From IMG/VR virus record IMGVR_UViG_2526164670_000016, positions 1-33,680 of that record: a stretch of 33,680 bases of DNA; one strand, 5' to 3'. Of the stretch, positions 1 through 33,680 are shown in pieces. Origin of the DNA: a virus. Its lineage: Duplodnaviria; Heunggongvirae; Uroviricota; Caudoviricetes. The position numbers and the translations under genes are program-made. The first letter of the stretch is position 1. Each line of letters starts with the position of its first letter. Under the pieces are notes generated by a model. The model worked only from the letters and a program-made list of their open reading frames with translations, searched no databases and was not told the origin of the DNA.

Positions 1-1362
1 ATGTTTAAACCGGAACTCCTTTCCCCGGCGGGAACGCTGAAAAATATGCGTTACGCTTTCGCTTATGGCGCAGATGCTGTTTATGCGGGCCAGCCGCGTT
101 ATTCCCTGCGTGTGCGCAACAACGAATTCAACCACGAAAATCTTCAGCTCGGCATCAATGAAGCCCACGCGCTGGGGAAAAAGTTTTATGTCGTGGTCAA
201 CATTGCACCGCACAACGCCAAGCTGAAAACCTTTATCCGTGACCTGAAACCGGTGGTGGAAATGGGGCCGGATGCGCTGATTATGTCCGATCCAGGGCTG
301 ATTATGCTGGTGCGTGAGCACTTCCCTGAAATGCCGATCCACCTTTCGGTGCAGGCTAACGCCGTGAACTGGGCGACGGTGAAATTCTGGCAGCAAATGG
401 GCCTGACCCGCGTGATCCTCTCTCGCGAGCTGTCGCTGGAAGAGATTGAAGAGATCCGCAATCAGGTGCCGGATATGGAGATCGAGATCTTCGTTCACGG
501 CGCGCTGTGCATGGCCTACTCCGGTCGCTGCCTGCTCTCTGGCTATATCAACAAGCGCGACCCGAACCAGGGCACCTGCACCAACGCCTGCCGCTGGGAG
601 TACAACGTCCAGGAAGGGAAAGAAGATGATGTTGGCAACATCGTACACAAGTACGAGCCGATTCCGGTGCAAAATGTTGAGCCGACGCTGGGTATCGGCG
701 CACCAACCGACAAAGTGTTTATGATCGAAGAGGCCCAGCGTCCGGGCGAGTATATGACCGCGTTTGAAGATGAGCACGGCACTTACATCATGAACTCGAA
801 AGATCTGCGCGCCATCGCCCATGTAGAACGCCTGACCAAAATGGGCGTGCATTCGCTGAAAATCGAAGGTCGTACCAAATCTTTCTACTATTGTGCACGC
901 ACCGCACAGGTTTACCGCAAAGCTATCGATGACGCCGCTGCGGGAAAACCGTTCGATACCAGCCTGCTGGAAACTCTGGAAGGTCTGGCGCATCGTGGCT
1001 ATACCGAAGGTTTCCTGCGTCGTCATACTCACGACGATTATCAGAACTACGAATACGGTTATTCAGTTTCTGACCGCCAGCAGTTTGTTGGTGAGTTTAC
1101 CGGTGAGCGCAAGGGGGACCTCGCGGCGGTAGCGGTGAAAAATAAATTCTCCGTTGGCGACAGCCTTGAGCTGATGACGCCGCAAGGCAACATTAATTTT
1201 ACCCTTGAGCACATGGAAAACGCCAAAGGCGAAGCTATGCCGATAGCACCAGGCGATGGTTATACTGTGTGGCTCCCGGTCCCGCAGGATCTTGAGCTCA
1301 ATTACGCGCTGCTGATGCGTAATTTCTCCGGGGAAACCACGCGTAATCCCCACGGTAAGTGA
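1..1362 (+). CDS. yegQ: U32-family peptidase-like protein YegQ (tRNA hydroxylation protein TrhP family), 453 aa
   Basis: Full-length ORF from ATG at position 1; protein recognised as E. coli YegQ from memory; high-GC host-like composition; followed by cyaR as in E. coli K-12. Confidence 0.9.
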   Translation: MFKPELLSPAGTLKNMRYAFAYGADAVYAGQPRYSLRVRNNEFNHENLQLGINEAHALGKKFYVVVNIAPHNAKLKTFIRDLKPVVEMGPDALIMSDPGLIMLVREHFPEMPIHLSVQANAVNWATVKFWQQMGLTRVILSRELSLEEIEEIRNQVPDMEIEIFVHGALCMAYSGRCLLSGYINKRDPNQGTCTNACRWEYNVQEGKEDDVGNIVHKYEPIPVQNVEPTLGIGAPTDKVFMIEEAQRPGEYMTAFEDEHGTYIMNSKDLRAIAHVERLTKMGVHSLKIEGRTKSFYYCARTAQVYRKAIDDAAAGKPFDTSLLETLEGLAHRGYTEGFLRRHTHDDYQNYEYGYSVSDRQQFVGEFTGERKGDLAAVAVKNKFSVGDSLELMTPQGNINFTLEHMENAKGEAMPIAPGDGYTVWLPVPQDLELNYALLMRNFSGETTRNPHGK

Positions 1363-1446
1363 TTAATTTCGATTATTTTTCCCGGATGGAAAATTCTTAG
1401 AAACCGATCACATACAGCTGTATTTATTAAGGTTATCATCCGTTTC

Positions 1447-1533
1447 GCTGAAAAACATAACCCATAAAATGCTAGCTGTACCAGGAACCACCTCCTTAGC
1501 CTGTGTAATCTCCCTTACACGGGCTTATTTTTT
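1447..1533 (+). ncRNA. cyaR: CyaR (RyeE) Hfq-dependent small RNA, about 87 nt
   Basis: Sequence GCTGAAAAACATAACCCATAAAATGCTAGCTGTACCAGGAACCACCTCCTTAGCCTGTGTAATCTCCCTTACACGGGCTTATTTTTT matches my recollection of CyaR, including the CCUCC seed-like motif and the terminator hairpin (CCTGTGTAA / TTACACGGG) plus U-run. Confidence 0.8.
1507..1533. other. P2-type attachment core (attL/attR copy), 27 bp, overlapping the 3' end of cyaR
   Basis: AATCTCCCTTACACGGGCTTATTTTTT is the reverse complement of the 27-nt P2 att core AAAAAATAAGCCCGTGTAAGGGAGATT as I recall it; prophage genes begin immediately to the right. Confidence 0.6.
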
Positions 1534-2071: not shown

Positions 2072-2108
2072 GAACGAACGAAAGAAAGGCCGCACGGTGG
2101 CGGCCTTT
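2072..2108 (-). terminator. Rho-independent terminator at the end of the minus-strand tail operon (possibly bidirectional)
   Basis: Hairpin AAAGGCCGC-ACGGTG-GCGGCCTTT at 2085-2108; on the minus strand it is followed by TTTCTTTCGTTCG, about 65 bp after the stop of the 2175-3899 gene. Confidence 0.55.
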
Positions 2109-2174: not shown

Positions 2175-3899
2175 TCAGGCTATCAGGGGACCGTATTTGC
2201 TTTTCAATGTATCGGTTTTAGTGGCCGCTGCGGTGAACTGCGCAGCCTGCCCGCTGGCCCCTGTATTGGGGTGAGTATGTGACGCGGCGGTCTCTGCCAG
2301 TTCCCTCACCACGTCCAGGGTGTCAGTGAGTAGTGTCAGTACGTTAATTTCTTCGCTTCCCAGTTTTACCACCGGGGCAATCAGCTGTTGCGCCTGGGCC
2401 ACACTTCGGCGGATACCGCTGATTTTCTCAGTCAGTGCGCCGCTGACGTTTGACGTGACATTCCCTTTCACGTCGTCTGTAACATCGCCCGCGACGTCCC
2501 GTTTTGCGTTCCGGCCAACACTGACGGAATTGTCCTTGCTGCAGGTTACTGTCAGGTTGCCGGATGTGCCGATACTGTAATCACCCTCGCTGATATGGAC
2601 CACCGCCCCGGCCAGAAGAGTGGCCGTGCCAAGCACGGTTGTTTTATCCGTTGCCTGGACCGTAGTTTCACGGACAACCACTTTGCGGATCTCTTCGTCG
2701 GTGGTGACTTCGCGCATCATGGAGTTTTCGCGGATTGTCTGGTCCGTCTGGCGTTCCCAGTCTCCGGCAACCGTCACGCGCTGCGATACACCATCGCGCT
2801 GTTGCTGCAACTGCTCGCCGGGTTTAACCGCTGGCAGGTTATGACCCTCCGCCATAATCTGGCGCACGAAGGGCTTATCCTGCCGCCCCTCAGTGAACCC
2901 GATTTCAACCAGCGTGCCAGGGGGCGGAAACTGGAACATTCCCGACTCGCTGCCCGCCATTGGTACAGGTAGCGGAACGGCAGAATAAACCGGCGTATTT
3001 GCGGCTGGCTTGCCGTATTCGTCAAGCAGCTGGAGATCCACGGCATAGCGCGGGCGGAATGGATCGGCAATATTACCCCCTGAAACATCCTCGCTTGGCG
3101 CTTCCACCCTGGCGAATTTTGGAAGATGCAGGCCGCTTGCCAGCTCCGGGAATGCGTTTTCAATCTGCCGCTGAATGGGTGATTTTTGCAATGGCTGGCC
3201 GTTGGCTTTGTTGCGTGGCTGCCAGGTGATTGTCATGTCGTCGTTATTTAGCCGGACCTGGTTTAACCGCTGGCCGTTCACCTCAGCACCCGGGCGCAGG
3301 CTCTGAATCATCGGCACAACCATTGAATTGCCGCCTGCCGATGCCTGGCTAAATTCGTGCGGGATCTCTACTGGTTTACCCGCAAAAAGACTGTGCTCAG
3401 CAGCACCGACGAAGACATCCCCGTCCGGCAGCTGATACCAAAGATAATCCGTCATTGAAAATGCTCGGCCCAGACTGGCAAAAAGCTGGTAGCCCGTGCC
3501 GCTGTGCGTAAAGTGGGGGATCGGTTTATCTGCATAAGCAGCGCCGACCGGCGTTGTGACGGTCAGCCCGCTTTGCTCACTTATCCAGTCAGTAATCTGG
3601 CGCAACGTTGGATGCTGGAAAGAACACGGCCACAATTTATCAAAGATGCCGACCAGCTCACGCACGAACAACCGGCATGTTCCATTATCAGCAGGCTGTG
3701 ACCGTTCGACGTACCCGGTAAACCAGCGCAGGACCAGACCATCATAACCAACATCGATACGCACCATTTTGCCGGTGTAATCTGTCTCTGTCCCCGCCGT
3801 AATAAACCCCCGACCGCACGCGTTCAGCTCCAGCACGATATTGCAGTCAATCAGATGGACCGGATCAGAGGAAAGGTACAGGCGTTTAATTGGTTTCAT
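2175..3899 (-). CDS. Baseplate hub-spike fusion protein (gpD/gp27-like hub fused to gpV/gp5-like spike), 574 aa
   Basis: Last gene of the tail operon next to att; length is roughly P2 D plus V; C-terminal segment (GTLVEIGF..., ...HTHPNTGASGQ) resembles spike proteins from memory. Family assignment not confirmed by search. Confidence 0.55.
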   Translation of the reverse strand: MKPIKRLYLSSDPVHLIDCNIVLELNACGRGFITAGTETDYTGKMVRIDVGYDGLVLRWFTGYVERSQPADNGTCRLFVRELVGIFDKLWPCSFQHPTLRQITDWISEQSGLTVTTPVGAAYADKPIPHFTHSGTGYQLFASLGRAFSMTDYLWYQLPDGDVFVGAAEHSLFAGKPVEIPHEFSQASAGGNSMVVPMIQSLRPGAEVNGQRLNQVRLNNDDMTITWQPRNKANGQPLQKSPIQRQIENAFPELASGLHLPKFARVEAPSEDVSGGNIADPFRPRYAVDLQLLDEYGKPAANTPVYSAVPLPVPMAGSESGMFQFPPPGTLVEIGFTEGRQDKPFVRQIMAEGHNLPAVKPGEQLQQQRDGVSQRVTVAGDWERQTDQTIRENSMMREVTTDEEIRKVVVRETTVQATDKTTVLGTATLLAGAVVHISEGDYSIGTSGNLTVTCSKDNSVSVGRNAKRDVAGDVTDDVKGNVTSNVSGALTEKISGIRRSVAQAQQLIAPVVKLGSEEINVLTLLTDTLDVVRELAETAASHTHPNTGASGQAAQFTAAATKTDTLKSKYGPLIA

Positions 3900-3906
3900 C
3901 GTTTAA

Positions 3907-4449
3907 TTACCCCAGCGCATCGTTGACCGGCTTTAAGACCTTTTCTTCAAACCAGCTCATTTTGTCGGCTGGTTCATCAGCACCTGCAGCCGGACCCGCG
4001 CCCTTTGCCCCTGTTTGCCTGGTGGTGGCCGTCGCGTTGCCTTTTCTGGCCTGTCGTTTTTCCGGGACGCTGCCTTTTTCACGCAGGGTGAAACTTACCT
4101 GCCAGGCAAGGCGATCCTCCTGCGGTACGGCATCAATCTGACCGGTGAACGTGGCTTCACGAAGGTTGATAGCCGTTGCCGTCGCATTGGCAACACGGTA
4201 CTTTTTCAGTGCGCCGCTGGCTTCGGTTGCGGATGCCAGCTGGAAAAGCCGCTGTAAAACGGCTTCATCGTCGAATGTCACCAGACCCGACACGCGCAGC
4301 TCTTTGGCCTTGATACCCTGTTCAGCATTGGCCGTGCTCGATGTCTGGCCCGACTGGTCCTTCTCCTGAAACTGCATGGAAGGTGAAACCAGCATGTTCT
4401 GCATGGCGATCCCTTCACCATCAAGCGCGAGTAATGCGGTCTGGCTCAT
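3907..4449 (-). CDS. Tail/baseplate-associated protein, function unassigned, 180 aa
   Basis: ORF in the tail operon between Tfa-like and hub-spike genes; GC content matches the surrounding structural genes; no family recognised. Confidence 0.4.
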   Translation of the reverse strand: MSQTALLALDGEGIAMQNMLVSPSMQFQEKDQSGQTSSTANAEQGIKAKELRVSGLVTFDDEAVLQRLFQLASATEASGALKKYRVANATATAINLREATFTGQIDAVPQEDRLAWQVSFTLREKGSVPEKRQARKGNATATTRQTGAKGAGPAAGADEPADKMSWFEEKVLKPVNDALG

Positions 4450-5143
4450 GTAGCATCCTCCCTAAGTCAGATAACGAATCCCCGATAAACATCATCGCGG
4501 CGGTATGCACTGCCGTTGTTTGCGGGATGCATTTCAGCAATTCAGCGGCAGCAACGGCATAACTCCCGCTGTAACTGAATGAAAAAATATTCGCACTGGC
4601 GGCTTTCAGGTCGTCCAGTCCCTGGCTGAGTGAGGACAGCAAACCGGCCCGTTCCTGAATAAATCCCGTCACCTGGTTTTTTAGATCTGTTGTGGTGGTA
4701 CTGACTGCGGCGGCCAGCTGCGCGGCGGCAACACGCTGGGCATTCAGCGCCAGCCGGTTGGTTGAGACTGATAACGGCGCACTGGCTGGCAATACATCGG
4801 CTTTAACCGGCAACTGCATTTTTACCGTGCTGAGTTCTGCGGCGGCTGCCGCCATGCGGCTTACCTGCGTAAAAGCGGGGGCAGGAAATACGGTGGACAG
4901 TTTATTCAGCCCCTGCATAAATGCGTCGTGGGTATTCTCCGCTACCATCATGACGATGACATCGCCGCTACCGCCACCGGATAACAGCTTTTTAGCAAGA
5001 TATTCCATCGCATTGGCCGGACTAAGATAAGCGCCTGAATCCGTGGACTGACCCAGCCCATACACCCACGGATGGGCCGGAATGATTGAACAGGATAATG
5101 CCGACATATCATCGGCAATCCTTATAATTGAATCACGCCACAT
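4421..5143 (-). CDS. Tail-module protein, function unassigned (about 240 aa from the ATG at 5143; track ORF extends to a TTG at 5191)
   Basis: Long ORF in the tail operon; ATG at 5143 has GGAG about 10 nt upstream and overlaps the Tfa stop by 11 nt; no family recognised. Confidence 0.35.
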   Translation of the reverse strand: MWRDSIIRIADDMSALSCSIIPAHPWVYGLGQSTDSGAYLSPANAMEYLAKKLLSGGGSGDVIVMMVAENTHDAFMQGLNKLSTVFPAPAFTQVSRMAAAAAELSTVKMQLPVKADVLPASAPLSVSTNRLALNAQRVAAAQLAAAVSTTTTDLKNQVTGFIQERAGLLSSLSQGLDDLKAASANIFSFSYSGSYAVAAAELLKCIPQTTAVHTAAMMFIGDSLSDLGRMLHEPDRITRA

Positions 5144-5570
5144 CGGCAGGTTGCTCCGGCCAGACAATATCTGTCGCTGAGTCGGTATCAATGCGCATCA
5201 GCGATACCCTGTATTCACGCCAGGCAGTAAAAAGCGCTTTTTCTGCGTCCGTCGCTTTACCCAGATCAACGGCATCCTGCAAAGGTGCCAGGATATTGCT
5301 GGCCGCAGCCATCAGGGCAGATTTTTGCGTCTCAGCCCTTACGATTGATTCTTCTTCAGAAAGCGGCAGGGGGTCAGAAAGGACCGGCTGACCATATTCA
5401 TTTGGGATGATGATACGCCCTGAACTCTTATCAATCAGATACTGATACCAGCGCTCAGAAATCAACAAGGCGTCAGCAGGCCAGCCCAGTTCCGATTTTT
5501 CATAATCTGGCTTCAACGAAAGGAAGAAAAATCCATTCATGGAAGCACTGTAATAATATTGCTCATCCAT
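5133..5570 (-). CDS. Tail fibre assembly protein (Tfa / P2 gpG-like chaperone), 145 aa
   Basis: Small ORF directly downstream of the tail fibre gene (4-bp gap); sequence resembles Tfa-family proteins; position is conserved. Confidence 0.7.
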   Translation of the reverse strand: MDEQYYYSASMNGFFFLSLKPDYEKSELGWPADALLISERWYQYLIDKSSGRIIIPNEYGQPVLSDPLPLSEEESIVRAETQKSALMAAASNILAPLQDAVDLGKATDAEKALFTAWREYRVSLMRIDTDSATDIVWPEQPADVA

Positions 5571-8107: not shown

Positions 8108-9278
8108 TCTCCACCGTTAACCCTGACAGGCGCGGGACCGACAGTTCGCTGACAATATCCGTCAGTGAAAAATGCAGTGAATCGACAACCGGAAAAGCTT
8201 TGTGGATCTCGCGGCCCAGATTCGAAAAGGAATAGCGCGAATAGGGCTGCGTCTTCTTAACGTCGTAATTGGCGTTCTCGCGAAACGCGCAACGAATCAG
8301 GTCGGTAATACCGGTTTTTAACGCGCTCAGGTCTTCCGCTTCCATGTTTTCCACGCTTTTGACGTATACCGTTACCGTCAGGGTGTGGCTGGTTTCCGGC
8401 ATGGTATAACACTGCAAATCATCACCGTGTCCGTGGTGGCCCTGGGTATTCACATAGTCGTTAACCGCATCAATAAAGGGTTGTGATATTTCGCCACTGT
8501 CCAGCAACAGGTAAGCATTTGCCGTACCCGGTCCCCGTGGGGCATCGTGCAAAAAGTAAATGCGATCAACGCTCAGGCCCAGCACGCTGGCAATCATGCT
8601 GCGGTAAATAGCGTCAGAGTGATAATTCCCCACCAGATTAAACTGGTTGCGGGTACGGTCGCGCAGCTCGTCGTCGCTTTCCTCGTTGGCTCCCGGCGTA
8701 ATCAGCCATTCGTCCTCATTGACCGCGCTGGCAATCCCGGCCACCGCAACGGGTAAAATCCGGTAATAGCCTGGCGCAAGGTTATAGCCGCTGCCGGTGC
8801 CGGTCGCCGTGACGGTAACCAGCCCGCTTTCAACCCCGGCAGGCAGCGTCACGTCTTCATTCACCGCCAGCACATAAACCACGCCGTTAATGCGCTCGGT
8901 TTGCACCAGTGTTCCGGCAGGCACGACGACCACATCCGCCGCGTTCAGCTTGTAGAACCGCAGCACGCCAGCGGCAGCGCTGGCCGGTTTAGGCACGATA
9001 TGAACCGCCCAGGCCAGCAGGCGCAGCATGGGACCGGTGGCCGTCGCAACAAACATATTGCGCAGGACCACATCGATCATCGCCGCCCGCAGCCATAACA
9101 CCGGCGTGGTGACAATCTTCGAAATCAGCCGCCAGAAAGGCGACATCCTCGACGTGTTTGTAACGAACCCTTCCGCCTGCACGGTGGCTTTAAACGCTGC
9201 CGTAATTTCGGCCTCTGTCGCGGGCATCCCGCTGTCATTCAGTACCTTTTCGAAATCAACGTCGGGTTTCTCAGTCAT
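8094..9278 (-). CDS. Baseplate J-like protein (P2 gpJ / Mu gp47 family), 394 aa
   Basis: Size and position immediately after the small W/gp46-like gene (ATGACTGA start/stop overlap). Confidence 0.65.
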   Translation of the reverse strand: MTEKPDVDFEKVLNDSGMPATEAEITAAFKATVQAEGFVTNTSRMSPFWRLISKIVTTPVLWLRAAMIDVVLRNMFVATATGPMLRLLAWAVHIVPKPASAAAGVLRFYKLNAADVVVVPAGTLVQTERINGVVYVLAVNEDVTLPAGVESGLVTVTATGTGSGYNLAPGYYRILPVAVAGIASAVNEDEWLITPGANEESDDELRDRTRNQFNLVGNYHSDAIYRSMIASVLGLSVDRIYFLHDAPRGPGTANAYLLLDSGEISQPFIDAVNDYVNTQGHHGHGDDLQCYTMPETSHTLTVTVYVKSVENMEAEDLSALKTGITDLIRCAFRENANYDVKKTQPYSRYSFSNLGREIHKAFPVVDSLHFSLTDIVSELSVPRLSGLTVEIEND

Positions 9279-9607
9279 AGTTAACCTCTGTACTGACAGG
9301 GCCGAAATCGTAGGTTTCCGCCGTGATATACAACCTCGAAAGGGTTTCTTCGGTGATCACTATGGTTCCTGGGACCAGACGTTCGTCGCTTTCCACCAGT
9401 AAGGACAGTTGTGTCAGCACGTCACCGCGCATTGTCGGGCTACGTTCACCGATCAGGCGGGTGGTGATACCGCTTTCCAGAATGCTGTGAATAATGTCCT
9501 GGGTGATGCTGTCGCGGTTATCGCAACGGCGCGGCTCGTTGCCCGCTGTCCAGCGTGAAATCGCCGTCAGTGATCAAAAGGTCGATGTATAACGGTTCGG
9601 TACTCAT
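9271..9607 (-). pseudogene. Small baseplate protein gene (gp46/W-like, about 111 aa) interrupted by a 1-nt frameshift
   Basis: ATG at 9607 overlaps the tape-measure stop (ATGA); frame 0 reads MSTEPLYIDLLITDGDFTLDSGQRAAPLR then stops; the +1 frame continues NEPRRCDNRDSITQDIIHSILESGITTRLIGERSP...TEVNYD and ends in a TGA overlapping the J-like ATG. One extra base near the GGGC run (about 9540) explains it. The track shows no ORF of 60 aa or more here. Confidence 0.5.
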
Positions 9608-22943: not shown

Positions 22944-24299
22944 ATGCGAATGACCGCTCCAACCAAATCCTTTACTGATGGATTTTGTGAGAATGATGAT
23001 ATTTTTGAAAGAAAAAAACTCCACGATATCATTATGCGGGTTGCCACTAACGCCCCTGATAAAAGTTTAGTTTTAGCATTAGATGATAAATGGGGTAATG
23101 GGAAAACTTCATTTGTAAAAATGATGGAGTCAGAGATAAACAAAAACCACTCCGACGATTTCGAAGTCATCTATTTTGATGCTTTTAAAAGTGATTATCA
23201 GTCTGATCCATTTGTGGCATTAACTTCTAGCATATATTCTCTTATAAACAAAAGTGATGGAAAGTTAAAAACGCTATGTAAGGAACTGTTAGACATTGGA
23301 AAAAAACTTGGTGCCTCATTTGCTATAAATGGTGCGAAGTTTGCAATCAGTACACTTTCAGGTGGGTTACTATCTGGAACCGTTTTTGATAAGGCTACAG
23401 ACACAATAACTGACTCTATCTCTTCGCCCGTAGAGGAATATATAGAAAGCAAAATAAAAAATAGTGAAAGTGAAATCGCGATTATTGAGCGGTTTGGTGA
23501 TTTATTAACTAAAATTTGTGAACAAAGTGGTAAGAAAATATTTTTTATAATCGATGAGCTTGATCGTGCCCGCCCTGACTTTTCATTAGACTTATTAGAG
23601 AAAATAAAACATATATTTTCGGTTAAAGGTGTTATTTTCCTGTTGGTTGTTAATCGTGAACAATTTGAAAAAAGCATTGAATGTCGATATGGCAATATTA
23701 ACGCAAGGCTGTACCTTAATAAATTTGTCCATTACTGGTTTAGTCTTCCGAAGAGAAGCTATCTTTCTGAGGATTGTTTAAATAGATTTAAGCACTCCAC
23801 TATAAAACAATACCTTCTCACTATAGATAATGGTAATAATTTCTTCGTTCGCAATGGCTCCCTTGTAAATACGCTGGCGTATTTGTTAGAAGTCAATGGT
23901 TGTTCACTACGAGAGGCTGAGCGTTGTTACTCTGTGTTTGCAGTTATTGCAAATCCGAATAAAATAAACGAGTACAGTACCGATGCTTATAAAGTTGCAA
24001 TGGGACTAGTTGCATTTCTGAAAGTTCATAACCCTCAAATTCTATCTGATATCATATATAAGCGATATGAATTAAAAGAAATTCTACCAAAGCTATCAAT
24101 CAAAAGAGAACATTTAGAATATATCTCGGAGGTCTACTTACTTGATCACTTACTACAGTACCACTACAAATCAGATGAAGAATTAAAAAACCCTGAGAAC
24201 CAAAATCAATTTTCTGACTTACAAGGTTATTTTGGTCGAAGAGCCCCTGTTTTAGAAATGATGTTTGAAACAGTTGAAGGGTTTAATATTAGTTATTAA
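22944..24299 (+). CDS. KAP-family P-loop NTPase (PifA-like), 451 aa; candidate phage-exclusion protein
   Basis: Walker A WGNGKTS (aa 50-56) and Walker B IFFIIDELDRARPD (about aa 200) in the KAP style, with a hydrophobic insert between them (ASFAINGAKFAISTLSGGLLSGTVF); low-GC gene with its own RBS (GAGGAAAG) in the cargo island. Confidence 0.6.
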   Translation: MRMTAPTKSFTDGFCENDDIFERKKLHDIIMRVATNAPDKSLVLALDDKWGNGKTSFVKMMESEINKNHSDDFEVIYFDAFKSDYQSDPFVALTSSIYSLINKSDGKLKTLCKELLDIGKKLGASFAINGAKFAISTLSGGLLSGTVFDKATDTITDSISSPVEEYIESKIKNSESEIAIIERFGDLLTKICEQSGKKIFFIIDELDRARPDFSLDLLEKIKHIFSVKGVIFLLVVNREQFEKSIECRYGNINARLYLNKFVHYWFSLPKRSYLSEDCLNRFKHSTIKQYLLTIDNGNNFFVRNGSLVNTLAYLLEVNGCSLREAERCYSVFAVIANPNKINEYSTDAYKVAMGLVAFLKVHNPQILSDIIYKRYELKEILPKLSIKREHLEYISEVYLLDHLLQYHYKSDEELKNPENQNQFSDLQGYFGRRAPVLEMMFETVEGFNISY

Positions 24300-24346
24300 A
24301 CCGTAAAAACATTATTTGCAGGCTCTTTGCCGCCCGCACCCGCAGA

Positions 24347-24389
24347 ATCCTGCAGGCCGACGCAAACAGTTGCGACGTCCTGCAGGATT
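24347..24389. repeat. GC-rich inverted repeat (AATCCTGCAGG ... CCTGCAGGATT with a partly palindromic 22-nt centre)
   Basis: Perfect 11-bp arms at 24347-24357 and 24379-24389 between the convergent KAP gene and the 24394-25104 ORF. Confidence 0.5.
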
Positions 24390-24393
24390 GCAT

Positions 24394-25050
24394 TCATTCT
24401 TTTGGGGGGCGACCTTCTGCACCCGCCAGCATTTTTTGATACTCCCCGACCGGATCAAACCGCAGACGCGTGGCATCTATGCCGTGGTTTTCCCGCAGAC
24501 GTTCCCATAATTTATTCACCATCCGTGACTCGTCGGGTAATTGACGCGTTATCAACTGGCCGCCAGCACTGGCCCGATAAACTTTTCCGCCAATCTCCAG
24601 ACGGCTCCCCATTAACAGCGAAACGGCCTGAATCTCTGAAATCTCAACCGAACACAACACCGCATCTGCCAGCAGACTGGCAACCGCAGGGGCAAGCGCT
24701 GCCTGCCTAGCTTTTTCAGCCTCCGATCTGGCCTCGGTTTTTTCAACGGCAGAACGCCAGGCGACATCTAATTCGCTTCCTGGCTCATAAGGTGATCCGC
24801 TTTGCCGCCTTTTGAATGGTGTTTCACGTAGTCGCCGCATCAATTTGCGCCGCGTTGGCTGGTCCATATCTTCAAAATCGACGATTTCATCGTCTGAATC
24901 TTCTGTCGTTAACTCTCCGTCAGCTGGCACAGCCATTTCTGACATTGAAAAATCGGTGATTTTTTCGTCTTCCGTAGAGTTATTGACAGAACTCGAACTC
25001 AAACACTCTGTACATTTTTGTGCAGTATAAAAAGTCTTCATGTTGATCAT
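24394..25050 (-). CDS. Hypothetical protein, acidic N-terminal region; start uncertain (ATG at 25050 or 25041; track ORF starts at a GTG at 25104)
   Basis: Single open frame across a GC-rich segment that contrasts with the AT-rich flanking cargo genes; no strong RBS; no family recognised. Confidence 0.3.
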   Translation of the reverse strand: MINMKTFYTAQKCTECLSSSSVNNSTEDEKITDFSMSEMAVPADGELTTEDSDDEIVDFEDMDQPTRRKLMRRLRETPFKRRQSGSPYEPGSELDVAWRSAVEKTEARSEAEKARQAALAPAVASLLADAVLCSVEISEIQAVSLLMGSRLEIGGKVYRASAGGQLITRQLPDESRMVNKLWERLRENHGIDATRLRFDPVGEYQKMLAGAEGRPPKE

Positions 25051-25118
25051 CAGTGCATAGACTTTTATGATTAGTTCAAAATGGCATTGTGCAGTATGCT
25101 CCACAACGGGTGAGACTT

Positions 25119-25682
25119 ATGAACATTCAAACCGAGACAATTTTTAGCATTGGGCATGGTGCTCGCAGGCTAGAAGAATTTATAGCTTTGTTGAAAAAAT
25201 ATCATATCAGATATGTTATAGACGTTCGTTCAAAACCCAGATCTAGGTTTCACCCACATTTTAATCGTGAAGCTTTGACTCTTCATTTGAAAGAAGCAGG
25301 CATTCGATACGTATTCATGGGAGAACAATTAGGTGGTATTCCTAAAGATGATCAATGTTACGATGAAGACGGACGGGTTGATTACGAAAAAATAAAAAAC
25401 AAAGCTTTTTTCCATGAGGGAATTGAGAGAATAAAAACGGCTCATTCAAAAAATTTAAAAATTGCATGTATGTGTAGCGAGCTATCCCCTTGCGATTGCC
25501 ATAGAAGTAAATTAATTGGTGATTACTTGCAATCACTCGGGATAGAAATGCAGCATATAGATAAGAAAGGAGATATTAGTTCACAAAATGACGTAATGAA
25601 GGAAGTGCTCGGCTCAAACGGTGAATTGGACCTATTTTCGGACAACACCAAAAAATTAAAATCAAGAAAATCGTATCGTTGA
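25119..25682 (+). CDS. DUF488-like protein, 187 aa
   Basis: N-terminal IFSIGHGARRLEEFIALLKK...VIDVRSKPRSRFHPHFNRE and later CMCSE..PCDCHR match what I recall as the DUF488 signature; ATG at 25119 with GGTGAG upstream (track ORF starts at a GTG at 25089); low GC. Confidence 0.55.
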   Translation: MNIQTETIFSIGHGARRLEEFIALLKKYHIRYVIDVRSKPRSRFHPHFNREALTLHLKEAGIRYVFMGEQLGGIPKDDQCYDEDGRVDYEKIKNKAFFHEGIERIKTAHSKNLKIACMCSELSPCDCHRSKLIGDYLQSLGIEMQHIDKKGDISSQNDVMKEVLGSNGELDLFSDNTKKLKSRKSYR

Positions 25683-25697
25683 ATAAAGGGTATTGAG

Positions 25698-26309
25698 ATG
25701 AATACTGATGTAATAATTCTTTCCAGAACAAAAATGTCTGGAGATAAAATTTGCGTAGGTGGATTAGATCTTAATAGTGGGAAGATGTTAAGATTATTGG
25801 ATAATAGAGCAAGTGCTTTGACTTCAGCTTATCCATATAGTATTGGCGAAACATACTCAATAGAGTTTGCTGAAAGGTATCAAGTAGCAGCCCCACATGT
25901 TGAAGATGTAGCTGTTTATGACTACAGCTTAGCGAAAAGTTTTAATAAAGTAGATCTAGATACTATCGTCCATAAACACTCTGGTACATATAACAATCTT
26001 AGTGAACTCTTCTCTGGAAAACTTCACTGGCAAAACTCCAAGGGATATGCTTTGGAGTCAGACCCTCCGGAATTTAGCGTTCAAATAGCAAAAATTAATA
26101 AAATCCTAGTTAGAAATGGAACTGACTTTCAAGAGTTCGGCTCACTCAATCCGCGCAAAGTTAAATATGTTGGCGAACTTGATATAAATAGACTCCCTAG
26201 TAGAATAAATCCTGGCACACCTATTAGATTTTCTTTAGCTCGACCTTGGGATAAGGATAATAATGGTATTAAAGTGTGTTATTTACAACTATCTGGAGTT
26301 TACATTTAA
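25698..26309 (+). CDS. Hypothetical protein, 203 aa, co-operonic partner of the DUF488-like gene
   Basis: ATG 15 bp after the DUF488 stop with AAAGGG..GAG upstream; AT-rich; no family recognised. Confidence 0.5.
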   Translation: MNTDVIILSRTKMSGDKICVGGLDLNSGKMLRLLDNRASALTSAYPYSIGETYSIEFAERYQVAAPHVEDVAVYDYSLAKSFNKVDLDTIVHKHSGTYNNLSELFSGKLHWQNSKGYALESDPPEFSVQIAKINKILVRNGTDFQEFGSLNPRKVKYVGELDINRLPSRINPGTPIRFSLARPWDKDNNGIKVCYLQLSGVYI

Positions 26310-26428: not shown

Positions 26429-28927
26429 TTACTCTATCGCCTTTCTCCAGCGACTGAGCAACTCATCAACTCTATGCCTTGCCAGCGTTTTACGCCAGTT
26501 CATATCCGCACCGGTCACAATCAACTCCCCTGTAATTTGGTTGGCACGGTAAGTAGTATCAAGCGCAGTCACTTCTCTCCCTTGTACCAGCTTTAGCACT
26601 TGCACAGGTGTGATTTGGATCTTTCTTAACTTCGCCCAATCCAGTACCTGAGCAACTAGGGCTGTAACGTTCTTATCTACTACGCTTTCTTCCTGGCGGA
26701 GCGCATACGCGGCTTTTAAATAGCTTTCCGCTCTAGCTCGGTTATATTCGGTGCACTCACCCACAGTGATACTGTACGCAAGTGACTCAAACTCATCTGC
26801 TGCTGAAACACGCTGCGTTTGTTTGTGGATTTTCAGGCCTTCAGCAATCTCTTTTTTCTGTTCCCACCTTAATTTGCCGATTTCAAATTGCTCTGGAGAT
26901 TCATCCCTAGTCGGCAAAGTCAGATCTGGCCGATAAACAACCTGGCAATCTGTTTGTTTTTTGTACTCAGTACAGTTATTGACACGAGTCCTAGAGGGCG
27001 CAGACGCGCCCTTAAGGTCAACAGCAAGGTCAACGGCCTTGCCTGAATCGTTAATAATCTCCGGTTTCTTACGCACAATCCGATAAGAATGTAGGCGGGT
27101 TTCAACTGGCGGCATGAAGATGTGAGGCATCACCAGTCCTTTAATTAAGGTCTGGTATTCACCGTGATCGTTTGGCTGGTCTTTTTGTTGATACCAGATG
27201 CGCAGTGGCAGATCACAACGGGCAACCAACGCCCCACCCTGCAATTGGGTGTATTGCTGCCAGTCGCCAGCATCCGCTGCACGGTGCAGCTCGGCAAACA
27301 ACGGGTTAATCTGGTCTGCCTTTTCCTGATTGCGGAATCGACGTAGCTCGCGCCAGACTGAAACAGGCGCACCACCAAGGAACTGGAATTGACGAATACC
27401 CCAGCATGATGCCCAGGCCGTCGCATGTTTTGAGGTTTCTTTTAATGGTCTGCCGTTCTCGTCATCTGTTTCACCGTCGAGCGCGTAACCATCAATATTC
27501 TTGCTGATATACTTCACCACATAACCGGTGGCGCTTCCGATTTCATGATCGATAGGCTTCATTTCGAAACGTGGACGAATGCCATGCTTACCCTGCAATT
27601 CGTCCTCATCCTCGCGGGTGGCGTAGTCCTTCATCACTTCCAACAATTCAGCTGAATGTTCTGGTAAGGAAAACAGAAGACCATGCCAGTGTGGCGTTCC
27701 GTCGTGGTGAGATTCAGCCACGCGAAGCCCAAACACCTGAATATCGCGGCGGGCCAACTCAGCGCGGATCTGTTGCCAGACTCGATTAAGATAACGTTGC
27801 GTGGTTCTTGGACTGGCCCCGTTCCATTTGCCATTACGATGACCGAAGACGGTATAGGCATGATATTTGGAAGGTGCTGTCATGGTGAAAAACTGCCCTG
27901 CATAGCCACTTTCGGTAGCGACTTTCTCGAAGCCACCGATGCGAGTCATAAGCTCAACGCGGCGCAAAGCTGGGTTAGATATGCTCTTATCTATTTGCTC
28001 AATGAGTGAAATGCGTTCTTTGGTTTCCTGATCTTCCAGCTCAAGCCTGGCCATAATCGCCCGGCTGCGTTTCCGCCTAGTGTCCCACTCTTCAACATGA
28101 TGCTTACTGCAATATGGCGCAGCGCCTCGCTTCACATCACCAAAAGCGATGTGCAGATGTTCACGCCAGCGCGTGCCGTACTTTTTAAGATTTCGGTGCC
28201 AGTAGCGATCATCCAGCATCTTGCTGATACCGGTCGTCGCCTCATCAATAAACAATTTACCCCGGCAATACTTTTCCCAGTTCGGTGGCGTTAGAAAGAA
28301 AAGACGCGCAAGTTGTGCCGCCTCGGTGTAAAGGTATTCGGCATACCGGCGATCACTTTGCGTCTCTACCGTTTCGTGTACCTCGCTCAGCACCGACCGC
28401 ATATAGATCGCAATATCCTGCGCTAATAGTTCAACATCTTCCGGCGTGTAGTCCGGCAGCCTGTTGAATCTCTCAACTAAACCGTTAAGGGTATCAAATA
28501 CATGGTAAAGCGGGTTTAACTTTTTGAATGCTGTTTCAGCTTGTGATTTTGCGTCTTCGGTCATCGCAATTGCGTATTGAGCATTCACCATATTGATGGG
28601 CGGCAGCTCTCTGCGGATGATGTCTCTTACTGCCTGACGGGCAATATGTCGGCCCTTCATCGTGTGAATACTGTCAATGCGAGAAGCCAAGCGCAGGCGT
28701 ATAAAGCGAGGAAGTCTCGAAAGGGTAAGTTTCACCCACGACAAAAACTCTTGTTCTTGACCCAATTCGAATAGATCAACAACAGGAGTCTTATCAACAT
28801 AAATAGCTGCATTAGGCTTTTGCCACTCGTAATCGTAATTGATATCAGCAGCAGAATTAGACATACCCCTGCCGCCAACTAACTGGCGGCGATTGTTACT
28901 CGGCCGAACAAACGCGGAGTCTGTCAC
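26429..28927 (-). CDS. A: Replication initiation endonuclease (P2 gpA-like rolling-circle initiator), 832 aa from the GTG at 28927
   Basis: HUH motif (DGTPHWHGLLF) and catalytic tyrosine motif (GYVVKYISKNIDGYALDG) as I recall from P2 gpA; GTGA overlap with the Dam stop, alternative ATG at 28864. Confidence 0.85.
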   Translation of the reverse strand: MTDSAFVRPSNNRRQLVGGRGMSNSAADINYDYEWQKPNAAIYVDKTPVVDLFELGQEQEFLSWVKLTLSRLPRFIRLRLASRIDSIHTMKGRHIARQAVRDIIRRELPPINMVNAQYAIAMTEDAKSQAETAFKKLNPLYHVFDTLNGLVERFNRLPDYTPEDVELLAQDIAIYMRSVLSEVHETVETQSDRRYAEYLYTEAAQLARLFFLTPPNWEKYCRGKLFIDEATTGISKMLDDRYWHRNLKKYGTRWREHLHIAFGDVKRGAAPYCSKHHVEEWDTRRKRSRAIMARLELEDQETKERISLIEQIDKSISNPALRRVELMTRIGGFEKVATESGYAGQFFTMTAPSKYHAYTVFGHRNGKWNGASPRTTQRYLNRVWQQIRAELARRDIQVFGLRVAESHHDGTPHWHGLLFSLPEHSAELLEVMKDYATREDEDELQGKHGIRPRFEMKPIDHEIGSATGYVVKYISKNIDGYALDGETDDENGRPLKETSKHATAWASCWGIRQFQFLGGAPVSVWRELRRFRNQEKADQINPLFAELHRAADAGDWQQYTQLQGGALVARCDLPLRIWYQQKDQPNDHGEYQTLIKGLVMPHIFMPPVETRLHSYRIVRKKPEIINDSGKAVDLAVDLKGASAPSRTRVNNCTEYKKQTDCQVVYRPDLTLPTRDESPEQFEIGKLRWEQKKEIAEGLKIHKQTQRVSAADEFESLAYSITVGECTEYNRARAESYLKAAYALRQEESVVDKNVTALVAQVLDWAKLRKIQITPVQVLKLVQGREVTALDTTYRANQITGELIVTGADMNWRKTLARHRVDELLSRWRKAIE

Positions 28928-29910
28928 CGCTCAGACTCCACGCCACATGTCGCAGCCGTTGCCAGCATTTCGTTATAGGTCGCGTTACCCATTACAGGGC
29001 CACAATCAGGGCAACCACCACCACCGGCACGACCACAGCCGCTACACAATTTGAGGACGCCGATCACTTCACTGGCGGCCCCTCGGGTAATGGCGTTCGC
29101 GCTAACAGAACGGTTAACGCTGATTTCCTGGAAGTTGAAACAGCGATAAATCTCGCGGGTGACTGGGGTGTCGCTATTGGACAGGATCACCGGCGAACCA
29201 GTAAGGCGGTTAATATCCAGCAGGACGGCAGCTAACTGGCGATGTTCTTTAATGCCAAACGGGGCTGTGTGATATTGGGTGAAATTAGCTGTTTCGCTTG
29301 TTGGCAGGTATGGCGGATCGCAGTAGATAACCGCGTCACTACCAATCATGATTTTTAACGTGCTCTGGAAATCGCAGCACACGAAAATGGCTTTCGTGTC
29401 GTTAGCTTTTTCAGAGAATAAACGGATCTGTTCTTCCGGGAAGTAAGGCGGGGTTTTGTGACGCCCAAAGGGAACGTTATATCCACCCTGTTGGTTGTAG
29501 CGTACTACGCCGTTATATCCGTGACGGTTCAGGTAAAGAAATTGTGCTGCACGAAGAATCTTGCCCGCGTCCGGCCCATCTTCAAACACACTGCGCAATG
29601 ACAGTAGGTCACGTGCGCGGGCGTTGAAATCATCGCGGATCCATTTATAGCCGTCTTTATCGCCGTACACTTTAAACAGTGGGCGAGCAGCGTCGATCAC
29701 CGCATCAGGCCAGCGGGTTATCTGGCGATACAGGTTAATTAAATCTGGGTTGATATCACCCAGGATATAACGGCGATATTCAGTATTGAGGAAAACAGAA
29801 GCACCGCCGACAAACGGTTCCACCAGGCAATCGGCTTTCGGCAGAATCGGCAGCAAATCAGGCATAACGCGGCCTTTACCACCGGGCCATTTAACGAGAG
29901 ATCGAATCAT
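28924..29910 (-). CDS. DNA adenine methyltransferase, Dam-like, with a Cys-rich C-terminal extension, 328 aa
   Basis: WPGGKGRV...EPFVGGASVF (SAM-binding) and IYCDPPY (catalytic DPPY) closely resemble E. coli Dam from memory; extra tail CSGCGRAGGGGCPDCGP; GGAG RBS before the ATG at 29910. Confidence 0.85.
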   Translation of the reverse strand: MIRSLVKWPGGKGRVMPDLLPILPKADCLVEPFVGGASVFLNTEYRRYILGDINPDLINLYRQITRWPDAVIDAARPLFKVYGDKDGYKWIRDDFNARARDLLSLRSVFEDGPDAGKILRAAQFLYLNRHGYNGVVRYNQQGGYNVPFGRHKTPPYFPEEQIRLFSEKANDTKAIFVCCDFQSTLKIMIGSDAVIYCDPPYLPTSETANFTQYHTAPFGIKEHRQLAAVLLDINRLTGSPVILSNSDTPVTREIYRCFNFQEISVNRSVSANAITRGAASEVIGVLKLCSGCGRAGGGGCPDCGPVMGNATYNEMLATAATCGVESER

Positions 29911-32436: not shown

Positions 32437-33221
32437 ATGACAATTAAGAAACTCGATGATGGTCGTTATGAAGTGGATATCAGACCTGCAGGGCGCAACG
32501 GAAAGCGCATCCGCAGGAAATTTGACAAGAAAAGTGAGGCTGTAGCTTTTGAGAAACACACTCAATACAACCATCACGATAAAGAATGGCTAGCTAAACC
32601 GACAGATAAGCGGCATCTGTCTGAATTAACAAAAGTCTGGTGGGATCTGAAAGGCAAGCATGAAGAACACGGAAAATCCAATTTGGGTAAGATTGAAATC
32701 TTTACCCGGATCACTGATGACCCTTGCGCGTTCCAGATAACCAAAGCGCTTATTAGCCAGTACAGCATGACTCGCAGAGGGCAAGGCATAAAACCGGCCA
32801 GTATTAACCGCGACCTTACCTGCCTGAGTGGTATGTTTACTGCGCTAATTGATGCGGAACTGTTTTTTGGCGAACACCCTTTCAGAGGGATGAAAAAGCT
32901 CAAGGAGCAGAAACCAGAAACAGGCTATCTGACGCAGGAAGAAATAACATTGTTACTTGCCAATCTTGACGGGGACAACAAGAAAATCGCGATCCTCTGT
33001 TTAAGTACCGGCGCTCGATGGGGTGAAGCCGCGAAACTGAAAGCTGAGAACGTAATACAGAATCGGGTGACGTTCGTTAAAACAAAGACGAACAAACCGC
33101 GCACAGTCCCTATCTCTGAGGAAGTTGCTGTAATGATTGCGGGTAAAGGTTATCTGTTCCCTGATGCCTCATATCCGAAGTTCAGGCGAACAATGAAAGA
33201 TGTAAAACCAGATCTACCGAG
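32437..33221 (+). pseudogene. int: Tyrosine integrase (P2 Int-like), 3'-truncated by IS insertion; about 261 of an expected ~337 aa retained
   Basis: N-terminal 260 aa strongly resemble P2 Int from memory up to ...KDVKPDLPS; after about 33221 the frame reads unrelated sequence (LYIDLCNCLILICS...) into the IS; the C-terminal catalytic region is absent. Confidence 0.8.
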
Positions 33222-33680
33222 CCTGTACATAGATTTGTGTAATTGCCTGATTTTGATATGTTCAATCCAGCATCAAATGAAGGTTAATTTATGGACGAAA
33301 AACAGTTACAGGCTCTGGCTAACGAACTGGCCAAAAACCTCAAAACCCCTGAAGACCTCAGTCAGTTTGATCGGCTGCTGAAAAAACTCAGCGTTGAAGC
33401 CGCTCTCAATGCTGAGATGACACACCATCTTGGGTATGAGAAAAATCAGTCCAGACCAGGAGCTAACTCCCGCAACGGTTATTCCACAAAGACCGTTATC
33501 ACAGGCGACGGTCCACTGGAACTGCGTACTCCGCGCGATCGTGACGGTACCTTCGAACCGCAACTGGTAAAGAAAAATCAGACCCGTATTACCGGGATGG
33601 ATAACCAGATCCTGTCGTTGTATGCCAAAGGGATGACCACCCGTGAGATAGCTACTGCGTTCAAAGAACTGTATGACGCA
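33221..33680 (+). mobile_element. IS256-family insertion sequence (IS1414/IS285-like), left end and 5' part; continues beyond the window
   Basis: Transposase ORF begins at 33291, about 70 bp inside the inferred left end; the boundary is placed where the integrase homology stops (plus or minus 10 bp). Confidence 0.7.
33291..33680 (+). CDS. IS256-family transposase, N-terminal 130 aa (partial, runs off the window)
   Basis: MDEKQLQALANELAKNLKTPEDLSQFDRLLKKL...NSRNGYSTKTVITGDGPLELRTPRDRDGTFEPQLVKKNQTRITGMDNQILSLYAKGMTTREI is the typical IS256/Mutator-like transposase N-terminus; no stop before the window end. Confidence 0.8.
   Translation, partial: MDEKQLQALANELAKNLKTPEDLSQFDRLLKKLSVEAALNAEMTHHLGYEKNQSRPGANSRNGYSTKTVITGDGPLELRTPRDRDGTFEPQLVKKNQTRITGMDNQILSLYAKGMTTREIATAFKELYDA

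Follow-up and report, generated by a model that had tools for sequence, protein, structure and literature searches.

A probable baseplate hub-spike fusion protein in an HP1-type prophage

Does a single gene encode both the baseplate hub of a contractile tail and its cell-puncturing spike? The question is raised by a prophage on a 33,680-nucleotide (nt) stretch of viral DNA (Caudoviricetes; IMG/VR record IMGVR_UViG_2526164670_000016, positions 1 to 33,680), referred to here as the window. An earlier note on this sequence had proposed that the terminal tail gene fuses hub and spike into one protein of 574 amino acids (aa), with a VgrG-like architecture that would differ from phage P2, where the genes D and V are separate. 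Our analysis agrees with this proposal. More specifically, the gene very probably encodes an HP1-type contractile-tail hub together with a cell-puncturing spike as one polypeptide, a reading directly supported by the folds of the modules, the family membership of the protein, the relation between split and fused forms, and the gene context.

Architecture of the probable hub-spike protein

The gene and the modules of its product are listed below.

2175..3899, minus strand: hub-spike gene, orthologue of HP1 orf35 (574 aa plus stop, ATG start, taken from the list of open reading frames, ORFs)
3225..3899, minus strand: compact hub module with the predicted gp27 / Mu gp44 / gpD fold (residues 1-225)
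3180..3224, minus strand: linker of fused forms only, PRNKANGQPLQKSP (residues 226-240), lying between hub end and spike start in the alignment with the split genes of Pseudoalteromonas phage ACA1 and Vibrio phage PV94
3054..3179, minus strand: N-terminal segment of the spike, with short helices and a strand (residues 241-282), from phrog_4011, the starts of standalone spikes and the secondary structure of the model
2745..3053, minus strand: spike oligonucleotide/oligosaccharide-binding (OB) fold of gpV / gp5 / VgrG type (residues ~283-385), from Phage_base_V, the family profile and the beta strands of the model
2355..2744, minus strand: putative triple beta-helix of the spike (residues ~386-515), from the gp5 alignment and Gp5_trimer_C/Gp5_C
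2178..2354, minus strand: tip module, helix-HxH-helix (residues 516-574; in the numbering of the model, the helices span 519-539 and 551-571)
2271..2279, minus strand: codons H541-T542-H543, putative metal-binding apex motif, from the invariant histidines and the likeness to gpV

By its sequence, the protein is a member of the HP1 orf35 family, and its ORF did not arise by chance. Its residues 1-574 match all 544 positions of phrog_2258 ('baseplate protein'; E 1.8e-274), and a second profile, phrog_4011, covers residues 240-571 only. Scoring of 8000 candidates yielded 1152 homologues at E≤1e-5, and when 1.84 billion representatives (50%-identity clusters) were searched exhaustively with HMMER, 676 related ones emerged at E≤1e-3. 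With tblastn, 75 phage records were matched. Salmonella phage SI7 (Irrigatiovirus, Peduoviridae; QEI25453) is the closest phage relative with 97% identity, followed by Yersinia, ESSI-2-type Escherichia and Cronobacter phages (~63-65%), the HP1 and HP2 orthologues (41-42%; HP1 orf35, UniProt P51739, 41% at 100% coverage, E 8e-127), Pasteurella and Aeromonas phages (~40%), Vibrio phages K139 and Kappa (36%) and Pseudomonas phage phi3 (34%). The orthologues are named orf39 in K139, kp45 in Kappa and QEI25453 in SI7, with another in Cronobacter phage ESSI-2. HP1, K139, Kappa, SI7 and ESSI-2 share full-length family membership, the last position in the tail module and the fused architecture with the window gene, although HP1 orf35 and K139 orf39 are only 41% and 36% identical over the aligned part and the K139-type tip lacks the helix-HxH-helix. 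Furthermore, a survey of 5426 complete E. coli genomes shows that about 19 carry a prophage segment of ~94% identity, where the hub-spike gene is labeled 'hypothetical protein'.

An AlphaFold2 monomer model was built on a 59-sequence family alignment (A1); its numbering is the true one minus 1, as the first row lacks Met1. The mean predicted local distance difference test (pLDDT) score is 82.7, with values >90 across residues 1-230 and a drop to ~75-79 at the linker (226-240). Whole-length fused spikes top the Foldseek list, led by AlgoCIS 7aef_q (7e-19), a Bacteroides VgrG (2e-18) and Pvc8 (1e-17), with the Anabaena contractile injection system (CIS), Afp8 and P. aeruginosa VgrG1 among the further matches. 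Structure prediction, which the earlier note had named as a check, came out in favor of both halves. In the model, residues 1-225 adopt the hub fold, with the tube-like barrels of gp27, gp44 and gpD. Structural match scores for this module are 19.3 for the MuSo2 43 kDa protein (3CDD; 216 residues aligned at 2.5 Å), 18.5 for the Neisseria Mu-like 43 kDa protein (216 residues), 18.0 for Mu gp44 (1WRU; 220), 17.9 for the phiCD508 XkdQ-like protein (220), 17.2 for E217 gp41 (219), 15.8 for the pyocin R2 hub (6U5H; 215) and 10.9 for Pam3 gp19, a hub of 229 aa (182). Judged from the model, the hub is a compact version of ~225 aa that is recognizable by fold only.

The spike half of the model matches Mu gp45 (9KI1_V; score 9.3, 179/194 residues aligned), P2 gpV (3QR8; 7.9, 150/157) and the pyocin R2 spike (4S37; 7.9, 152/168), and follows the P2 gpV and Mu gp45 succession of an OB-fold, a trimeric beta-helix and an apex. 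Between residues 386 and 515, the monomer model assigns no strands, as expected for a structure that would form only as a trimer. At the sequence level, Pfam Phage_base_V (PF04717) matches residues 310-345 below its cut-off (E 0.011, 16.5 bits against 23.8), and 46 of the 59 family members match it at E≤0.05 (best E 9e-06). Gp5_C/Gp5_trimer_C matches on residues 450-498 are weak and below the Pfam cut-offs as well, with Gp5_trimer_C found in 19/59 relatives. A single-protein phmmer search of the PDB aligned residues 438-496 to the T4 gp5 beta-helix, its gp5 and VgrG matches reaching only E~0.04-0.3. The family profile goes further, reaching Salmonella VgrS (E 9.8e-05, positions 285-454), P. 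aeruginosa VgrG1 (1.9e-04, positions 311-476) and T4 gp5 (2.5e-04), all within profile positions ~285-480. Together with the invariant HxH at 541-543, these profile matches bear out the spike-like C-terminus described in the earlier note. No lysozyme domain of the T4 gp5 type, which would lie between the OB-fold and the beta-helix, was matched by the lysozyme families of Pfam and NCBIfam; only the beta-helix part of gp5 aligns.

H541 and H543 are invariant in the 59-sequence alignment, which has just 45 invariant columns, and the stretch around them, SHTHPNTGASG, is similar to LHTHKHPGDSGG at the apex of P2 gpV; the Pfam GpV Apex motif is matched by one of the 59 members. Unlike in gpV, two predicted helices flank the HxH, which is ~33 residues away from the C-terminus. 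The hallmark of this tip, namely a G-x-x-x-N-(V/L)-L helix, then an HxH at a distance of 33-48 residues from the C-terminus and a helix ending ...L.P(I/V)(I/V)E, is shared by 11 of the 13 fused representatives and by 55 of the 61 standalone spikes; in a 56th standalone spike (P0275), the HxH lies 19 residues from the end. A minority tip of the K139/PV94 type ends in ..CPFTG.PH..TVFAGK instead. This alternative cysteine/histidine tip occurs in fused and split spikes, including PV94 gp47 (L003 6654-7418) and the representatives P0225 and P0227. Such a replacement end suggests that tip modules are exchangeable. In gpV and phi92 gp138, the HxH motifs of three chains reportedly bind an iron ion at the spike tip, and by analogy with P2 gpV the six tip histidines of a trimer probably hold a metal ion here.

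Fused and split forms among the relatives

The best 150 of the 676 relatives were sorted into fused forms (12), standalone hubs (12), standalone spikes (70) and fragments, which make up the remainder. The standalone hubs are 225-244 aa long and end at query residue 226-232. The first residues (1-9) of the standalone spikes align to query positions 234-262, mostly 239-242, and the linker PRNKANGQPLQKSP is an extra segment of the fused proteins that is absent from the split forms. In annotated phages, two-gene pairs are found in ACA1 (gp48 and gp49) and PV94 (gp46 and gp47), with phrog_4011 as the family of the spike. These share their modules, gene order and neighbors with the window; the hub ends in ...ITW (query W224), the spike starts with an ..IKR.I..FPEL helix, and the ACA1 spike terminates in the same HxH tip as the window protein. 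In contrast to the window, the ACA1 and PV94 genes are separate, overlap slightly (as ATGGATGTAA in PV94) and lack the 226-240 linker, so that hub and spike are not covalently joined.

In a neighbor-joining tree built on 159 columns of the OB region, without support values, a single split has all 16 fused sequences on the same side. Only one standalone spike, P0273 (317 aa), is nested among the fused forms, which could stem from secondary fission, a frameshift or an error in gene calling. Because the fused sequences share one side of the split, this crude tree is consistent with a single fusion, from a two-gene state, in the ancestor of the HP1, K139 and enteric clade. Most likely, the fusion arose from adjacent, overlapping hub and spike genes of the kind that are still separate in many relatives.

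The fusion itself is already on record for HP1, the type phage of the lineage, as it is described in the supplement of PMC10612066. Its Table S1 lists ACA1 gp48 as gpD and 'P51739N' and gp49 as gpV and 'P51739C', and the gpD and gpV homologues are given there as one polypeptide in HP1. What our analysis adds is incremental: a fold-level confirmation, the exact break point, how widely the two-gene form occurs, a fusion that apparently originated once, the conserved helix-HxH-helix tip and the assignment of orf34 as tube initiator.

Gene order and surroundings of the prophage

Three features flank the hub-spike gene.

2085..2108, minus strand: terminator-like hairpin at the end of the tail operon (stem of 9 bp, 6 of them G-C, and then CTTTCGTT; consensus match only)
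3907..4449, minus strand: HP1 orf34-like protein of 180 aa, probable tube initiator and gpU equivalent (Pfam HP1_ORF34, E 7.5e-54)
4421..5191, minus strand: HP1 orf33-like protein of 256 aa (phrog_1677, E 2.7e-78, a family without known function)

The hub-spike ORF begins 7 nt past the stop of the orf34-like gene. As the hairpin (2108-2085) comes after its own stop codon, at a distance of ~67 nt, the gene is the last of the tail operon, in line with its description as terminal. The orf34-like protein, whose model has a confident core of ~100 residues, is the probable tube initiator sitting on the hub; phmmer against the PDB returned nothing useful for it, and hhalign against a single P2 gpU sequence gave no signal, such a target being too weak. 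The orf33-like gene overlaps the orf34-like gene by 29 nt, and its product has no match in Pfam, NCBIfam or the PDB (phmmer). Its ACA1 homologue, gp46, carries a GenBank note of detection by mass spectrometry, and the protein is probably a virion or baseplate component.

The tail module runs from gpR-like, S-like, sheath (DUF2586), tube (HP1 Orf24), holin, endolysin and spanin genes through chaperone, tape measure, DUF2590 (W-like), J, I, fiber and Tfa genes to the orf33-, orf34- and orf35-like genes. This order, which the earlier note had given correctly as differing from that of P2, is identical to HP1 orf21-orf35 and to SI7, with the hub-spike gene last after the orf33 and orf34 homologues. 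The 'non-P2 order' is therefore the known arrangement of the HP1 subgroup, which PMC10612066 treats as a deep split within the Peduoviridae.

P2 gpD and gpV, like the pyocin R2 proteins, have the same folds and roles as the two halves of the window protein; an HxH apex motif is found in both P2 and the window, and the P2 hub gene closes a tail operon behind the tube initiator gene (U-D), like orf34-orf35 here. In P2, however, gpD (387 aa) and gpV (211 aa) are two distinct proteins, and their genes belong to different operons: V is grouped with W-J-I-H-G, and D comes after T-U. Their combined 598 aa are close to the length of the window protein, as had been pointed out in the earlier note. P2 gpD exceeds the window hub by ~160 aa, and helices flanking the HxH, as in the window protein, are absent from gpV. 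Mu gp44, Mu gp45 and the MuSo2 43 kDa protein are the best structural matches of the respective halves and are separate proteins in Mu. The Mu gene order is initiator-hub-spike (43-44-45), as in the window; the Mu hub and spike genes precede the wedge genes, whereas the window gene follows the fiber genes.

A CyaR/RyeE small RNA (1445-1530, plus strand; Rfam, 100.7 bits) lies beyond the hub-spike gene, together with an ORF at 1..1362 (plus strand) that we take, from its sequence, to be a yegQ-type U32 peptidase. These two neighbors place the hub-spike gene at the left edge of the prophage, and the prophage itself at the cyaR site, which P2-like elements use. At the other end, the integrase (32437-33381, plus strand) aligns to that of SI7 only up to residue 261 of 314 and is followed to the window end (33381-33680) by a Mutator-family transposase fragment (Pfam Transposase_mut, E 9e-26); it appears to be interrupted by an insertion sequence (IS). 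No att direct repeats of at least 10 nt were found between the two prophage ends in window-wide and end-to-end searches. The right end probably lies outside the window or was displaced by the IS.

Further observations concern other genes of the prophage. A low-GC block (0.35-0.46) at 22944-26309, between the portal and gpA replication genes, is a cargo region encoding a KAP P-loop nucleoside triphosphatase that matches the PADLOC candidate system PDC-S20 (E 6.7e-70), a DuOB dual-OB protein and a DUF488 protein that matches PDC-M45B (E 1.4e-54), and is probably an anti-phage defense hotspot. A gene for a D12-class, Dam-type N6-adenine methyltransferase (28924-29910, minus strand) adjoins the gpA replication gene, as in SI7. 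The E. coli prophages of ~94% identity (e.g. NZ_CP172152.1) carry an AbiH-family abortive-infection gene close to both the hub-spike gene and the end of the prophage; the window lacks it.

Mechanism, alternative readings and meaning

We infer how the protein would assemble, bind metal, dock to the initiator and pierce the cell. Three copies would form a ring of compact hub domains (1-225) and a continuous needle, made up of an OB-fold collar (~283-385), the triple beta-helix (~386-515) and the helix-HxH-helix tip (516-574). By analogy with P2 gpD/gpU, the orf34-like tube initiator would form a hexamer with the hub ring docked beneath it, and the ring would also nucleate the J/I wedges; for P2, bioRxiv 10.64898/2026.09.14.750843 places three copies of gpD beneath six of gpU, and the gpV trimer further down. 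Upon contraction of the sheath, the tube would drive the needle through the outer membrane. If P2-type spikes normally detach from the hub to open the DNA exit, the fused phages would have to either expel hub and spike jointly, like the VgrG of a type VI secretion system (T6SS), or cleave the 226-240 linker, a scenario that we regard as unlikely. If true, the HP1 clade would have a mechanistically different channel-opening step, for which the naturally occurring split and fused forms and the unusual helix-HxH-helix tip would provide a ready experimental system.

Several points weigh against a hub-spike protein. The profile searches of the separate halves that the earlier note had suggested bore it out in part: the C-terminal half returned spike profiles, if weak ones, and the N-terminal half had no hub match in Pfam or NCBIfam. 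Phage_GPD (PF05954) was absent from the protein at E≤0.1 and from the 59 relatives at E≤0.05, the family-profile search of the PDB gave nothing for the hub half, and hhalign of the family alignment against single P2 gpD and gpV sequences gave no signal (gpD probability 0.3%), such single-sequence targets being too weak. The sole sequence hint for this half is a weak match of phrog_196 ('baseplate hub') to residues 25-145. As sequence-level support is confined to the C-terminal half, with no significant Phage_GPD or NCBIfam hub match, the identity of the hub depends on its predicted fold. The beta-helix and the tip cannot be properly modeled as a monomer, and the protein is known here from its gene and predicted model. 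In addition, the W-like gene (DUF2590, sheath-initiator type; 9271-9607, minus strand) carries a 1-nt insertion relative to SI7 (GGG vs GG, ~9544) that breaks its frame and is either an inactivating mutation or a sequencing error. If this change and that of the integrase are real, the element is defective and the hub-spike gene an intact relic, whose product may no longer be used here.

The size of the hub module is a further point against. Compared with Mu gp44 (~325 aa in the crystal) or P2 gpD (387 aa), it falls short by ~100-160 aa, with only ~216-220 residues aligning, and parts of the canonical hub may be lacking or be provided by another protein. Residues 1-225 could accordingly be viewed as a mere 'mounting' or adaptor domain, the hub ring being formed wholly or partly by another protein such as the orf33-like one, which has no assigned function and whose ACA1 homologue is on record as detected by mass spectrometry; the ACA1 authors' term for the split N-terminal homologue is 'cell puncturing device mounting domain'. 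We consider this improbable. The hub-plus-spike reading is supported because both halves have fold matches and no other ORF of the tail module matches a hub or spike family in the profile scans. A joining of two genes by frameshift or sequencing error, as an artifact or recent accident in this genome, is extremely improbable, even if relatives with two overlapping genes exist and the window has a 1-nt indel in another tail gene: the full-length fused form is kept in hundreds of sequences (P0001 alone comprises 594 members on 400 contigs) and in the isolated phages SI7, ESSI-2, HP1, HP2, K139 and Kappa, all with the dedicated linker. A frameshift-generated fusion was rejected, as the fused reading frame is conserved across genera.

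The best full-length structural parallels lie outside phages. T6SS VgrG and the spikes of extracellular contractile injection systems (eCIS; Afp8, Pvc8, AlgoCIS, Anabaena and Streptomyces CIS) have the same covalent succession of gp27-like hub, OB-fold and beta-helix, with weak sequence similarity in the latter two; VgrG, Afp8 and Pvc8 are long-known hub-spike fusions. The VgrG-like architecture proposed in the earlier note is found here, a gp27-like hub and a gp5-like OB-fold and beta-helix being present in one chain. A bacterial VgrG or a tailocin or eCIS spike, rather than a phage virion protein, would fit these best full-length matches, the decay of the prophage and the UniRef label 'Actin cross-linking toxin VgrG1' of one homologue. 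It is nevertheless a very improbable identity, given the complete P2/HP1-type module around the gene (capsid, portal, terminase, lysis and replication), the close homologues in plaque-forming phages and the absence of T6SS or eCIS genes nearby. Membership in the T6SS VgrG family was rejected: NCBIfam TIGR01646 (vgr_GE) scores 16.1 bits against a cut-off of 121.8, over residues 313-363 only, and the neighbors are phage tail, head, lysis and replication genes. The window protein differs from VgrG by its shorter hub, its phage locus and a helix-HxH-helix tip in place of a blunt end for PAAR. It would work like VgrG without belonging to the VgrG family.

For an HP1-type member of the Peduoviridae, a fused hub-spike is ordinary and has been described before, and no new question is opened by it, since the fusion had already been noted for HP1. 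Its value lies mainly in annotation: proteins entered as 'hypothetical protein' in RefSeq and GenBank records of E. coli, Salmonella and SI7 can be named baseplate hub-spike (VgrG-like), and the upstream orf34-like neighbor can be named tube initiator. As a whole, the family offers a case in which the VgrG-type fusion of T6SS and eCIS most likely arose inside a phage lineage, from adjacent, overlapping genes.
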